In this document: one piece after another, positions 6,092 to 12,942 of the stretch | Layout of the letters: the number at the start of each line of letters is the position of its first letter | Numbering within the stretch: position 1 is the first letter of the stretch | DNA from: a virus | Lineage: Duplodnaviria > Heunggongvirae > Uroviricota > Caudoviricetes | Length of the DNA: 23,171 bases | Reading direction: 5' to 3' (one strand) | Virus record (IMG/VR): IMGVR_UViG_2531839128_000009 | Program-made: the position numbers and the translations under genes | Notes under the pieces: generated by a model | The model's database searches: none | What the model was told of the DNA's origin: nothing | What the model saw: the letters and a program-made list of their open reading frames with translations, nothing else

Positions 6092-6116
6092 AAAAAACCC
6101 GCCGGGTGGCGGGTTC
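6092..6116 (-). terminator. rho-independent terminator after the small membrane-protein gene
   Basis: Perfect 7-bp GC-rich stem ACCCGCC / GGCGGGT (6097-6103 and 6108-6114) with a 4-nt loop, followed on the minus strand by TTTTTTG. It lies 16 nt past the stop of 6132-6371. Confidence 0.75.
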
Positions 6117-6131
6117 ATTATTGAAGTTTCA

Positions 6132-6371
6132 TTACTGCTTGTTTGCTTCTAACGCTTCAGCTATTCGGCGAAGATACTCATTGTTTTTAAATGAAACCAT
6201 GATGCACTCAAAGAATATTCGGCAAAATACAGCACATAACAAAAGCACTAAAGCGCCAGCAGCCTTCCCATTAACAAACGTTATAATGGCGGCAACAACC
6301 AGAAGTAACATTGTGATGCCATACAGAACGTTGATGATTTTTGGAGTTATTAATTTATCAAATCCGAACAT
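6132..6371 (-). CDS. small two-TM membrane protein (inserted accessory gene, function unknown)
   Basis: 79-aa ORF with two hydrophobic stretches (IINVLYGITMLLLVVAAIITFV and AAGALVLLLCAVFCRIFFECIMV) and an AAGGA SD 9 nt upstream of the ATG. AT-rich by eye relative to flanking structural genes. Has its own promoter-like element and terminator. Confidence 0.8.
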   Translation of the reverse strand: MFGFDKLITPKIINVLYGITMLLLVVAAIITFVNGKAAGALVLLLCAVFCRIFFECIMVSFKNNEYLRRIAEALEANKQ

Positions 6372-6407
6372 GCGACAAATTCCTTATCGTGAAAGTAGAA
6401 GTACCAC

Positions 6408-6436
6408 ATTATAATTACGAGTGATTAATCAACAAT
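6408..6436 (-). promoter_or_regulatory. candidate sigma70 promoter for the small membrane-protein gene
   Basis: Minus-strand TATAAT (plus 6408-6413, perfect -10 consensus) with TTGTTG 16 bp upstream as a weak -35. Lies in the 53-bp gap between the two accessory genes, about 35 nt upstream of the ATG. Confidence 0.5.
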
Positions 6437-6766
6437 CTTTTTGCATGGAAAGGAACCGATGATTTTCGGCGCATCCATGCTGTTCTGCAGCAGTTGGACA
6501 TTCAGGAATCGCGTTTCGGTACCAGGGCGACGAATGTATTCAAAGCCGTAGTTGTTACCGTCTTTGGCAGGCATAAGCCCCATGTCTACTTTCAAACCAT
6601 TGGTACCCAGTTCGGTGATTTTTTGAGAGGTAACTCTTTCACCGTTGATTGTCGATAACTCGCCCTGGTTTGCAACCATAGTGTAGCCACCGCATTTAAC
6701 CGTGAAGCCATCCGCCCACGCGCTGCACGCAGAAAAGACAGCTAACAGAAAAATAATACCCCTCAT
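6425..6766 (-). CDS. small secreted / periplasmic protein of unknown function (accessory gene)
   Basis: 113-aa ORF with N-terminal signal peptide MRGIIFLLAVFSACSAWA followed by DG (AXA-type cleavage; a lipobox reading is less likely). Mature part has two Cys (CGG near the N-terminus, FPCKK near the C-terminus). AGGGGA SD; start is 3 nt after the upstream stop. Confidence 0.8.
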   Translation of the reverse strand: MRGIIFLLAVFSACSAWADGFTVKCGGYTMVANQGELSTINGERVTSQKITELGTNGLKVDMGLMPAKDGNNYGFEYIRRPGTETRFLNVQLLQNSMDAPKIIGSFPCKKIVD

Positions 6767-8136: not shown

Positions 8137-8723
8137 TAGCCGCCCCCCAGTAATGACGCCACGTTACCCGTGATGCTTTTCAGCAGTGAAGTATCTGGAG
8201 GCTTGGTGGTTTTGTTGCCGCTGTTCTGTACCGCCGACGTGCTGGCCCCTTCCTTCATGTTGGTTTTATCCGCGACGGTAATCTGCTGCGTCCGGGAGAT
8301 AAGGACCTCCCTCAGGGTGAGGACGGCGGACAGGACGTTTTCGGTTGTCTTGTCCGTCGTCACTTCCAGCGCCCGGATCAACATGTTGCTGTACAGTCGT
8401 TTACCGGTTACCACATCGAAGGGGATACGGCTTTCCTGCAGATCCAGTAGCTCCTGATACGTCTGCTGAGGACTCAGGCCGAGCAGGCTGGTAGCCGTCA
8501 GATTACTGGCAAAATCCAGCAATGCGCCGCCACCGGCGAAACCAACCTCCATCACCACTTCTGACGGTTTTTTATAGGCATGATCAGCGACAGCGGCCCC
8601 AACCTCTACCGGATGCTCTGTTATTTCAAGCATATCTGTATGCTTCTCTGAAATAACAACACTGGGAACAATCATTCCTATTTTTCTGCTCTGCTGATGA
8701 AAAAGTGTAGAGAGAATATCCAC
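8136..8723 (-). CDS. tail protein following the tape measure (hypothetical)
   Basis: 195-aa ORF whose start overlaps the tape measure stop, same strand. Confidence 0.6.
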   Translation of the reverse strand: MDILSTLFHQQSRKIGMIVPSVVISEKHTDMLEITEHPVEVGAAVADHAYKKPSEVVMEVGFAGGGALLDFASNLTATSLLGLSPQQTYQELLDLQESRIPFDVVTGKRLYSNMLIRALEVTTDKTTENVLSAVLTLREVLISRTQQITVADKTNMKEGASTSAVQNSGNKTTKPPDTSLLKSITGNVASLLGGG

Positions 8724-10712
8724 TAACCCACCCTCACCTGATTACTTCGCATGACCTGAGCATTTGCAGACTGTTGCCGACGTGCAACCTCATTACCGAC
8801 AGCGTGCGGATCTCCACCACCGTAAATGTGGTAGGTATTTTGCTGGTTAACCTCTGTCATTTTGCCACTAATTCCCGCCACGGCAGCCTTATTAATCAGC
8901 TCTCGAGAATAGATATTTCTTCCATTCTCATGCTGGATAATGCTGCTCATCAATGCTGACATGGTTTGCGGATCGCTCATATTCAGGGCAGCCCGGGGAT
9001 CCACTCCCAGTCGTTGCGATACAGCCCTGATATACGCAGTTGTGTTGTTATTATCAGACGCAGGTGCCCAAGTAGAGATAATTTTCTCCACACTGTTTAT
9101 TCCCCGTCCGGCGTACAGCATTAACTGACGAGCAAGAGCCCGTAATCCATCAAAAGCAGTTTCAAATCTGGCAAATCGCCCGCCCGGGCGTTCAAGAGAA
9201 GCCCCTGCCTGACCAGCAAAATTAAGGTTTCCCGGATTGTTATTCCGTTCTCCTCGTTTCGTAGCCTGTGCATATTGTTCCGGCTCATCATCACCAAACC
9301 AGCCGCGTACCGTCCGGCCCACACTGCGGGGATCGAATCCCCAGTGCTCTTTAATCCAGTCGGCAGTACTGTTAGCGCTGTCTGTAACCATCGGCATCGC
9401 TGACGGATTTTCGCTGCCCTGATTAAGTATCTGTTTGCCGATGATGACGGCATCAGCCCAGCGGCCATCTTTGATAGCGTTGAGCAGGTCGGCGATCATG
9501 TTCAGCATTTTGCTGAATTCGCCCATCTGGTCGATGAAGTTGCTGAAATCCCACTTCAGGGACCATGATTTTGGGTCAATATTGAGCAGTTTCGCCAGCG
9601 CTTTCGCCAGTTCATTAACAGACCCTTTCAGGTCACGAACCATCTTCAGCGCGGCATCGACCTCCGGCTTCCACTTGCCCCAGTCAATCAGGCTGTCGCC
9701 GCCTTCCTTCCAGGTCTGATAGTCCTCCCACAGAAGGGCAATCCCCGCCGCCAGCGCGGTAATGAGACCAATCGGCGACATCCAGAACGTACTGTTCAGA
9801 ATGCGCAGCGCAATCGTCAGCGCGCCAAACAGCGAGATGAGCTCCCGCGTTTGCTTATCCAGCGATTGCCACCAGGTGATAAGGCTGGATGTTCCCTCAA
9901 TTAGCCTGAAGAACAGCCGCCCGATGATGTCTCCGATCGCCAGAATGCCTTTTATGGCTTTCGTCAGGGTCTGCTCGATACGAGGGAAGTTGTCCAGGAT
10001 ATGGCGGCGCAGGGTGTCCAGCGAACCCGCAAGCCCACCCGCAAGATTAGAGCCGATTTTGTCACGGGCCATGCCTGCCATCGCGCCGAACTCGCGCAGG
10101 GAGGTCATGAATTTGTTGGAGCTTCTGGCCGCCTCGTCAGCATTGAAGCCGATAGCTTTCGCCATTGCGCTGTACTGCCCGGAGCCCCCCCCCCACACCC
10201 CGGCGCATCGCCATAAGGGTATTTTCGTCAATGCCCAGCATCTGCGCATACTGGTTAGCCCGGTAATACGGCATGCTGCTGAGCTTCTGGCCGACGCCCG
10301 TAAAGATAGCGGCCATGTCGCGCATGTTACCGCTGGCGTCACGGGTCTGTACCCCCAGACGATTCAGAAATCCCTCCGCCCCGGGGTTATTACGGATAAA
10401 ACGGGCAAGGCTCTCCAGTGACCCGCGCGCAGCGTCCACGCTGCCGCCAACCTGCGAAACCGCATAGCCAATAGACTGAATTCCCTGGACTGTCGCGCCG
10501 GTGCGCTGTGACGCCCAGTAAAGATTATCCAGGCCGGAGGCGATCTTAGCCGTGAAGGCCACCACGGACAGCGCAGCTCCTTCAACGGCCAGTCCCATTT
10601 TGATGACATTTGCAGTTGTACCGGCGAGGACAGAACCGAACTTTTTCGCTCCTGCATCATCCACACTGAAGCCAAGCGAGACGAGGAAATCTTTAATAGT
10701 TTCAGCGTTCAT
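8723..10712 (-). pseudogene. tail tape measure protein, frame interrupted in a homopolymer tract
   Basis: Two overlapping minus-strand ORFs (10137-10733 and 8723-10342) in different frames both give tape-measure-like sequence, and switch frame exactly at the C10 run 10185-10194. Removing one base restores a continuous roughly 660-aa protein reading …MAMRRGVGGGSGQYSAMAKAIGF…. Start ATG 10710-10712 has a GGAGAGAGGA SD. Confidence 0.8.
10185..10194. repeat. C10 (G10 on the coding strand) homopolymer inside the tape measure gene
   Basis: Ten consecutive C counted on the plus strand; they encode Gly-Gly-Gly in either frame. A length of 9 or 12 would be in frame. Confidence 0.9.
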
Positions 10713-10947
10713 TATCCTCTCTCCATTTCTCAATGCGCCGCTGGTTATCCGCTTTTACCGCCAGATGGTCATTCAAGAGAGCAATGTCATACAAATCGAC
10801 AGAGCCATCTTTAAGTGCTGTATAGGGAATTAACCCGGCGTCAACCGGATTGAGAAGGTAGGACAGCCCGTCCGGCAGGCTGTTAAACGTCAGCCCTGTT
10901 GCAGGCTCTGCGTCGTGCTGGTAAGGGGTGTAGGCAAAAAATTTCCC
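10702..10947 (-). other. -1 programmed frameshift signal and extension frame of the tail chaperone
   Basis: Coding-strand GGGAAATTTTTTG (plus 10935-10947) contains two overlapping heptamers, G_GGA_AAT and T_TTT_TTG, in the zero frame 16 codons before its stop. The -1 frame is open from there for 79 codons to TGA 10702-10704, overlapping the tape measure start. Predicted fusion is about 210 aa. Confidence 0.7.
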
Positions 10948-11342
10948 AGCGAATCGGCGACCACCCGCGCCACCAGATGAAGCATGACCAGCAAGTCAAT
11001 ATCATCAAACATCAGTTCGCCCTGGGTAAATACCGGAACCCATCCGTCCATATGACGCCGCGACACCACCGCAAGACAGGGATGAATAATCGCATCGGTG
11101 TCATCTTCGGTCAGGGAAGACAGTTCCTCAGCGATACGCGGGAGCATGGTTTCAAACACCGGTTTTAACTGCTCGAATTTCACGGTGTCGATTTTGCCGT
11201 CAGCAGGCAAACGGGAGCGAATGCTCCCGAAATCTGACATCATTCCCGCCAGTACCGGCAGAAGTTTGCGGGTCACTTTCAGCTGGTCAAAAACGCTGAG
11301 TTTTGCCACGCGATATTTCACGCCTTTGATTTCGAATTCCAT
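10890..11342 (-). CDS. tail assembly chaperone (zero-frame product)
   Basis: 150-aa ORF between the tube and tape measure genes, the conserved position of the G/GT-type chaperone. Confidence 0.8.
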   Translation of the reverse strand: MEFEIKGVKYRVAKLSVFDQLKVTRKLLPVLAGMMSDFGSIRSRLPADGKIDTVKFEQLKPVFETMLPRIAEELSSLTEDDTDAIIHPCLAVVSRRHMDGWVPVFTQGELMFDDIDLLVMLHLVARVVADSLGNFLPTPLTSTTQSLQQG

Positions 11343-11345
11343 GCA

Positions 11346-11786
11346 TTAAAACTCCCCGAGAACCTGGTCAATCTTGCCGCAGTCAAACACCCACGGCATC
11401 GTATTACCGGTTTTAGCGTTGGCGTTATCCGGTTGTTTCTGGAACGCAACACTGCGTGCCGTGATGATGTCGCCGCTGACCTTGTTGCGGATCACGATAA
11501 CGTTATTCCCCCATGTGGCAGAAGACTGGCTCTGTGCGTTATACGCCAGCGACAATTTTTTATTTGTCGGTGATGTCTTCAGAAGGTTAACGGTAATCGT
11601 CCCGCTTTTATCTGCATGGAGACTGTGCATCACTTCGCCATCAGCACCGATGGTCATGGTGTTTTTAGGACCGCCCATCGCAACCACAATCCCCTCTTCA
11701 GAACTTGCAGAACCGTACCCGAGGTCAATCGAACCGGTCGGGCCGGTCAGCGTCGCAGTGACATCCATAAAAGAATAGGTAGACAT
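11346..11786 (-). CDS. tail tube protein
   Basis: 146-aa ORF immediately after the sheath gene and before the chaperone. Assignment is from size and synteny. Confidence 0.75.
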   Translation of the reverse strand: MSTYSFMDVTATLTGPTGSIDLGYGSASSEEGIVVAMGGPKNTMTIGADGEVMHSLHADKSGTITVNLLKTSPTNKKLSLAYNAQSQSSATWGNNVIVIRNKVSGDIITARSVAFQKQPDNANAKTGNTMPWVFDCGKIDQVLGEF

Positions 11787-11796
11787 TCACTTCCCC

Positions 11797-12942
11797 TTAG
11801 CGAACAACGTTAATCTGTACGTCAGCGTAATGAACCGCGCCTGCAAGTTTTATTGCAGCCTGAATCACCGGAGCCTTACGGGCTTCACGTTCTGATTGTG
11901 CCTGTTCATCCAGCGGCTGGGCGTATACGTAATAACCTTTGGGCAGCGTGTCACCTGATGACAACTGACCAAGGTCGCCACCGTTCCATACGCCCGGAGC
12001 AATCAGTCCATTCTGAACGGCCTGAGCCAGTGATTTTTCAACATTTGATAACAGTCGGGTAATACCGGCTTCAGTCTGGGGAACCTTCGTGGTGCTGGTA
12101 TAAAGCAGGTTATAGAGGTTGGTCTGCACATAATTCTGTAACCAGTCCAGGCCGTGGCGTTCATCAAAGAAATCGCCGTTAGCCATCACTCCCTGCTGGA
12201 GGATAGCTGTATCATTCTGGTAGTACACGAACACATTGCAGTTTTTTGCATCAAGTGCCGATGCCTGGCTGACTGTCAGTGTTTCATACCCGACACCCGG
12301 CTCCTGCTTAAACTTGAGCGTAATCGCGGTATTACTGCCATTGAAATTAACCGTGAATGCCCGGCCAAATGCAGATAACGCAGCGTATTTACTACCCGAT
12401 GAATATTGAATAAAACTGCGTGAATATCCGGCGGTTTTCAGTTTTGATGCCAAATCATCGCTGGATGCAGTCTGCAGGCATTTCTCATCGCTTGTCGTAA
12501 TCGCCAGAATACGGCTTACAGAAGAGGATTCGATCGCCGCAGCCACTTTCAGCCAGTCTGCATCCGGAATATCTTCATCGTCTGCAATCCCCAGCCCATA
12601 CCATGAAGTATAATCGAGCATGGCATTCACAGCCTGCTCCAGCGTCTCAGGCGTGGCCTGTTCGCTGTCTCCCTTCGTTTTCACCCAACGACCAACAAAA
12701 ACCTCCTGAGGTTTCGGTGATTGAGAGAAAAACACCTGCGCAGCCTTATATTCTGGTGATTCCACGCCAAAATCTTTTCCAATATCTTCCGCGGCAGAAT
12801 AACGGCGAATGCGCTCACTTACCGGAATGATTGTGGACGGGCCGAGAATGAGTAATGCACCAAAATTTCGCCCTGATGCTGCACGCGGCGACATGATCAC
12901 ATCAACATTAACAACGTTTGATACAGGCAAGCCCTGTGCCAT
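11797..12942 (-). CDS. tail sheath protein
   Basis: 381-aa ORF at the head of the tail block. Size and position fit a contractile sheath subunit. Confidence 0.8.

Follow-up and report, generated by a model that had tools for sequence, protein, structure and literature searches.

Frameshift at a poly-G run in the tape-measure gene of an ETEC prophage, probably a recent slippage mutation

In homopolymer frameshift pseudogenes of prophages, a one-base change in the length of a run breaks an essential structural gene in an otherwise intact prophage, and close relatives carry the in-frame length. Poly-G contingency tracts were reportedly described by Sorensen et al. 2021 in Campylobacter jejuni and in Fletchervirus phages. 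There, a run of 9 to 10 G lies in a phage structural open reading frame (ORF), its length sets the frame, and natural length variants occur. In Campylobacter, whose mismatch repair is weak, these tracts are conserved, switch with high frequency and lie in receptor-binding genes, with both states useful. Programmed frameshifts, such as the -1 shift of the G/GT tail chaperone and the +1 shift of prfB, also change frame at a slippery run, and the chaperone case belongs to a tail-morphogenesis operon. At these programmed sites the out-of-frame arrangement is found in all homologues. Here we describe a G10 run in the tail tape-measure gene of an Escherichia coli prophage and compare it with these systems.

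The window, the whole 23,171-nt stretch of DNA analysed, is contig APYM01000327.1 of assembly GCA_000357205.2 from E. coli ETEC P0299917, and the host of the prophage is the ETEC clone from that subject. The closest deposited phages were SEN34, Yersinia phage YP3 and four E. coli phages such as vB_EcoM-689R2. The gene order from sheath to baseplate was the same as in the window in Salmonella phage SEN34 (Brunovirus) and in E. coli phages vB_EcoM-689R2, -611R5, -683R1 and -606R2. When the tape-measure region alone was compared, SEN34 DNA was 87.7% identical over 73% of a 2.2-kb query, and 689R2 DNA was 93.5% identical over 67% of it. Unlike the window, both phages have intact tape-measure genes (669 and 661 aa, respectively) with no long G run at this place. 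The annotations of SEN34, YP3 and 689R2 also gave the gene as uninterrupted.

Judged by its sequence, the disrupted gene is a tail length tape-measure gene and a member of phrog_2276. With the extra base removed, the whole protein aligned with phrog_2276 (tail length tape measure protein), residues 1-662 covering profile positions 21-659 of 673 at an E value of 9.8e-281. This agrees with the initial annotation, in which the frames on both sides of the run were read as tape-measure sequence. The single continuous reading frame expected of a phrog_2276 gene was present in the relatives and absent in the window. Residues ~442-649 of the repaired protein also matched phrog_873 and phrog_7182, and the C-terminal third resembled endolysin and lytic transglycosylase families in PHROGs, which accounts for the RefSeq name 'lytic transglycosylase' on intact homologues. 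A Pfam search of the tape measure returned just a sub-threshold PhageMin_Tail match.

The position of the gene was typical of a tail operon in these phages. It lies downstream of the sheath gene (11797-12942), the tube gene (11346-11786) and a 150-aa tail assembly chaperone (10890-11342, minus strand, phrog_1688), and upstream of the Dit-like, baseplate and hub genes, with synteny in SEN34, 689R2 and E. coli strain A16. The Pfam order on the contig was E217_gp31_N, Phage_Tube_PhiTE, Phage_TAC_15, DUF6889, the tape-measure gene and Dit_like. All other structural ORFs of the window had the same lengths as their intact homologues. We also noted that the -1-frame ORF between the chaperone and the tape measure (DUF6889, called at 10702-10866, minus strand) was open from a slippery heptamer of canonical form, T_TTT_TTG, at 10941-10935 (span 10702-10941). 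A -1 shift at this heptamer is predicted to produce a 213-aa G/GT-type fusion with the chaperone, and the site, one gene upstream of the tape measure, looks like a genuine programmed frameshift of the tail operon.

The whole tape-measure gene occupies 8723..10712 on the minus strand and measures 1990 nt, against 1989 nt for the intact gene, a +1 frameshift. From the ATG at 10712, the minus-strand frame runs from MNAETIK to MAMRRGVGGG and then into LRAVQRNGESYRLQC, 15 out-of-frame residues before the stop at 10139-10137. The resulting N-terminal fragment ORF (10137..10712, minus strand) has 191 aa, 176 native and 15 out of frame. The next minus-strand frame contains GGGSGQYSAMAKAIGFNADEAARSS and continues to the stop at 8723. 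This C-terminal remainder (8723..10165, minus strand) can be called as an ORF from either of two starts, an internal ATG at 10165 (480 aa) or 10108 (461 aa), and such gene calls were also found in two related contigs (L008 and L009). Its frame is open upstream as far as 10342, and the interval 10137-10342, where the initial annotation placed the break, corresponds to the overlap of the two mechanical ORFs. A two-piece tape measure made by re-initiation at the ATG at 10165 or 10108 was unsupported, with no obvious ribosome-binding site.

The frame changes at a G10 homopolymer, which appears as C10 on the plus strand at 10185..10194 and exceeds the in-frame G9 by one base. The plus-strand context is CCCGGAG, CCCCCCCCCC and ACACCCCGG, with ACACC directly after CCCCCCCCCC. 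This was the sole homopolymer of at least 8 bases in the window; shuffled sequences gave an expected count of 0.04 for C10/G10, and 4 of 100 shuffles reached one. Alignment with the three intact phage homologues (SEN34, YP3 and 689R2) placed exactly one extra base, inside the run, just where the shift had first been noticed. Deletion of one G yielded a continuous protein of 662 aa containing RRGVGGGSGQYSAMAKAIG, as the initial annotation had written. The predicted full-length product has a mass of ~71 kDa, and its predicted junction peptide is GVGGGSGQYSAMAK.

Tape-measure homologues were found in ~309 of 5,426 complete E. coli genomes. The exact G10 sequence had no match among these ~309 genomes; among the matches listed, all were one base shorter. 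The sole exact match to the G9 sequence in this set was strain A16, where the run encodes Gly-Gly-Gly in frame. Between A16 and the window there was one net indel in 15.2 kb, the extra base in the run. Most relatives, including E41, 09A19CPO009 and MS20659, instead had GGGGGGG-TT-C at the site (G7-TT, encoding Gly-Gly-Phe). In IMG/VR, seven of the eight matches were G7-TT, and the remaining one (L020) was G10. The tract gave no hit in exact-pattern scans of GTDB species representatives and JGI metagenome contigs. Intact homologues of 662 aa were annotated in A16, E41 and MS20659, and the repaired window protein differed from the common E41-type protein by one codon, Phe177Gly.

Much closer relatives were sister prophages (L024-L031) in at least eight other E. 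coli assemblies, which were 99.90-99.99% identical to the window over 18-20.7 kb. All eight carried G9 and an intact gene, and the tract was the sole indel relative to the window. In five of them, the 4,790 nt surrounding the gene were identical to the window. The exact protein with one G fewer (P0016) occurred on 48 public contigs, in 111 index blocks. Such near-identical G9 sisters, with the tract as the sole indel, indicated that the change was very recent, and together with the full-length structural ORFs this implied that the prophage is otherwise intact. The comparison of tract length among sister genomes, suggested at the outset, thus gave G9 in frame in the sister prophages and A16, and G10 in the P0299917 siblings. 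We consider it likely that the extra G is real and recent, a +1 insertion into the tape-measure gene of a SEN34-like myovirus prophage that is otherwise intact, and that it arose in all likelihood by G9 to G10 slippage. Of the three explanations offered in the initial annotation, a genuine inactivating mutation is the best supported, with G10 in the siblings and G9 in near-identical prophages.

Split or truncated forms of this tape-measure gene exist elsewhere and have other causes. The protein SPX12791.1 (P0011) carried another frameshift, further downstream in the same gene, where NLAGGL is followed by RVRWTPCAAIS. A separate 'tape measure' family of ~218 aa, phrog_12506, matched residues 1-228 alone.

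The prophages also varied at places outside the tape-measure gene. A Pin-like serine recombinase (Resolvase and HTH_7 domains; 'pinE' in A16) lies at 296-886 on the minus strand. Adjoining it is a segment with tail-fibre and fibre-assembly genes, bounded by 21-nt inverted repeats at 912-932 and 2739-2759. Part of this segment (~1866-2757) was inverted in L024 and L026 relative to the window. To judge from this layout, the recombinase and the segment have the look of an invertible Gin/Cin/Pin-type switch of host range. Between the baseplate genes, a variable slot at 6106-6440 held a 79-aa DUF4282 ORF in the window (6132-6371, minus strand), a 190-aa DUF2335 gene in L011 and L015, and two other ORFs in A16; it could be a moron or cargo position. 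At the recombinase end of the prophage, a 936-aa gene with a SIR2_2 domain abuts the prophage in L024, L026 and L027. By alignment with converted coordinates, the first ~75 bases of the window would be the 3' end of this gene, which may be a defence gene at the prophage edge. A 19-nt hairpin at 87-133 may be its terminator.

The isolates from subject P0299917 allowed the heritability of the extra base to be examined. The colonies came from a single Bangladeshi ETEC patient and comprised nine clonal isolates and one distinct isolate (PMC4462620). Their assemblies were built with Celera Assembler from HiSeq2000 data of >200x coverage (PMC4462620). By exact protein look-up, the 191-aa N-terminal fragment was present on at least 13 contigs. 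Besides the window, its carriers included four more NCBI assemblies (the APYL, APYN, APYR and APYS series) and Logan re-assemblies such as SRR446943, and the fragment also occurred in two unrelated 2025 runs; at the DNA level every one of these loci read G10, as did L020 from IMG/VR. NCBI names it 'putative bacteriophage protein [E. coli P0299917.5/.10]'. The SRR446943 contig was common to nine samples, which fits the nine clonal isolates of the published study (PMC4462620).

A sequencing or assembly artefact, in which one G was over-called in a true G9 tract, would give the same consensus. Homopolymers are classic error sites, the siblings were all sequenced in one batch, and the other G8 and G10 variants were seen in automated Logan assemblies alone. 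The sibling assemblies also differed mutually almost solely by T>G at GGT, with some sites recurring between isolates, and GGT>GGG is a known systematic Illumina error (PMC3295828). Against the window, L008, L010, L013, L014 and L020 each had 4-9 differing sites over ~4.8-20 kb, almost all of them T>G at GGT or A>C at ACC (the other strand). These differences match the Illumina error and were taken as consensus errors, not real within-patient SNPs. However, errors of this kind are substitutions and add no base, and the window and one Logan re-assembly (L012) had none of them and still read G10. G10 was concordant across the sibling assemblies examined, and was present in five NCBI sibling assemblies, the IMG/VR locus L020 and independent Logan re-assemblies, although these tract lengths come from consensus assemblies in a data set that is not error-free in G-rich contexts. 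The eight assemblies of other samples with a near-identical prophage all read G9, and no other indel was present in 15-20 kb; coverage was >200x. A noisy long-read assembly was also rejected: the data are Illumina, and comparison over 15-20 kb with A16 and the sister loci gave no further net indel. The repeated recovery of G10 from the five sibling assemblies, the IMG/VR copy and the Logan re-assemblies makes a heritable +1 slippage mutation much likelier than an artefact. Assembly error, which the initial annotation had listed first, is therefore unlikely.

To examine the stability of the run, we constructed the proteins predicted for alternative tract lengths and looked them up exactly, comparing the same N-terminal haplotypes. 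For the window-type allele, the G10 fragment was found on 8 contigs (the window, L008-L015 and L020) and the G8 fragment on 2 (L032 and L033). For the A16-type allele, the G10 fragment was on 2 contigs (L034 and L035) and the G8 fragment on 1 (L036). The in-frame G9 protein was carried by 48, 10 and 2 contigs (P0016, P0017 and P0018, respectively). For G7-TT in the same two N-terminal haplotypes, 128 and 41 contigs were in frame (P0034 and P0035) and no contig was out of frame with G6 or G8. Of the 73 contigs with the G9 allele, 13 were thus out of frame, and of the 169 with G7-TT none was (Fisher p = 7.6e-8); these counts contain clonal duplicates and may be biased because some annotation pipelines drop pseudogene proteins. 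The difference persisted (p = 0.0015) when a minimum of five independent length-change events was counted. The G8 and G10 lengths were confirmed in DNA, with G8 in L032, L033 and L036 and G9 in L004 and L024-L031; the G8 and G10 variants outside P0299917 came from automated Logan assemblies alone. Neither G11 N-terminal fragments nor the in-frame G12 protein of the window-type haplotype were present in the protein collection. The restriction of length variants to the G9 allele indicates that the G9 run is a mutational hot spot, and such a run would in principle be able to revert.

One further G10 lineage (L011 and L015) differed from the window at 80 positions in 4,790 nt and had its own exact G9 counterpart, P0018. 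The tape-measure genes of the two lineages differed at 26 nt, 21 of them synonymous, as might be expected of an old functional G10 allele under purifying selection. This explanation was rejected on two grounds: an exact G9 form exists for each lineage separately (P0016 and P0018), and the differences are concentrated in gene positions 729-954, which resembles a recombination patch. In numbers, 18 of the 26 differences from L011/L015 fell within gene nt 729-954, and 12 of the 17 differences from the A16 allele fell within nt 288-327. This clustering looks like short recombination patches, and points to mosaicism inside the gene.

The same length variation could be read as a sign that selection has kept the poly-G run as a reversible on/off switch for tail production, an evolved contingency locus. 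Public assemblies contained G8, G9 and G10, spread over three or more haplotype backgrounds, which implies at least five independent length changes, and length variants were significantly commoner at the G9 than at the G7 allele. The run lies inside an essential structural gene, and its length decides function. Contingency loci contain mononucleotide runs of ~8 or more in an ORF or promoter, and the window has G10 in an ORF; tract-length polymorphism among isolates, another of their features, was also present. However, the run is not conserved: it is interrupted in SEN34, YP3 and 689R2, and G7-TT takes its place in seven of the eight IMG/VR matches and in E41, 09A19CPO009 and MS20659. The exact G9 allele, found in A16 alone among the ~309 complete genomes, is a single Phe>Gly codon away from the common allele. 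The sibling colonies examined were all G10, which gave no sign of high-frequency switching at the consensus level, a level at which minority lengths are hidden. E. coli has working mismatch repair, unlike the classic phase-variable species, and we know of no benefit of a tail-off state. The tract of the window thus differs from those of Campylobacter and Fletchervirus in being a rare derived allele, in lying in a tape-measure gene and in showing no switching within the clone.

Overall, the contingency-locus explanation is not supported; it fails on the conservation of the tract and gains nothing from the uniformly G10 siblings. We regard an evolved switch as very improbable, and the initial annotation had ranked it as the least likely of its three explanations, a ranking that the derived, non-conserved allele and the lack of switching among sibling colonies bear out. 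If it were a true switch, poly-G phase variation of phages would extend to E. coli, and the evidence is against this. A working toggle born of the TT>GG change, with lysogen populations mixing tail-off (G8 and G10) and tail-on (G9) prophages and possibly low-level +1 decoding of G10, has only a slim chance of being correct. If it did operate, infectivity of the prophage would be stochastic, as with the poly-G of Campylobacter phages, although here the host is proficient in mismatch repair and the gene encodes a tape measure.

We also considered whether G10 might still give a full-length tape measure, leaving the prophage partly functional, either through a +1 ribosomal slip in which tRNA-Gly moves along GGG_G or through loss of one G by RNA polymerase slippage. 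In the sequence, a tRNA that moved one base downstream would pair as perfectly with the second GGG as with the first and would yield exactly the G9 protein, and a G-rich Shine-Dalgarno-like sequence precedes the run. Few tape-measure copies are needed per tail. Non-programmed frameshift suppression of 1-10%, measured in E. coli for -1 events, also counts in favour (PMC10861913). On the other hand, the out-of-frame arrangement, which programmed sites such as the G/GT chaperone and prfB have in all homologues, is not conserved for the run at 10185-10194; 60 G9 and 169 G7-TT contigs were in frame against 13 out of frame, and no complete genome had G10. The 121-nt RNA around the run folded no better than shuffles, with an energy of -40.3 kcal/mol where shuffles averaged -44.3 (z = +1.09). 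A transcriptome-wide study of E. coli placed all homopolymer insertions in A/T runs, judged G/C runs not slippage-prone and showed very few homopolymer deletions (PMC5574713); a deletion of this kind in the mRNA is what G10 would need. Neither conservation nor local RNA folding revealed a recoding signal at the run. We consider effective recoding extremely improbable, and leaky suppression of G10 at a few percent is a residual possibility compatible with this analysis.

A slippage mutation that inactivates the gene accounts for these observations through a short series of steps. The starting point would be the common allele of the family, GGG GGG TTC, encoding Gly-Gly-Phe, with a run of G7. 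A TT>GG change (Phe177Gly) would then have created an uninterrupted G9 that was still in frame. This run is unstable, and replication slippage probably lengthened it by one G in the ancestor shared by the nine clonal isolates from P0299917. Translation goes off frame after Gly-176 and stops 15 codons on, with loss of 486 of the 662 residues, including most of the length-determining region and the C-terminal transglycosylase-like part. In tailed phages, a full-length tape measure is required for tail assembly. Given this general role, we infer a loss of tail production, and infectious particles are expected from the prophage only after a return of the run to G9. Back-slippage from G10 to G9 might occur at an elevated but low rate, so that the defect would be formally reversible. 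Such reversibility is a property of any run of this kind and is not evidence of design.

Taken together, the locus shows an ordinary slippage event at an unstable run and not a novel sort of switch. Nothing essential sets it apart from the homopolymer frameshift pseudogenes of prophages, which likewise have the in-frame length in close relatives. Here, in addition, the TT>GG change that created the run can be seen, and both -1 and +1 variants are public. For annotation, a single frameshifted pseudogene of the tape measure should replace the two ORFs, and this ETEC prophage, complete as it looks, is best recorded as probably incapable of particle formation. The locus also provides a small natural example of how a two-base substitution, by turning G7 into G9, made a phage gene visibly unstable in public genomes.
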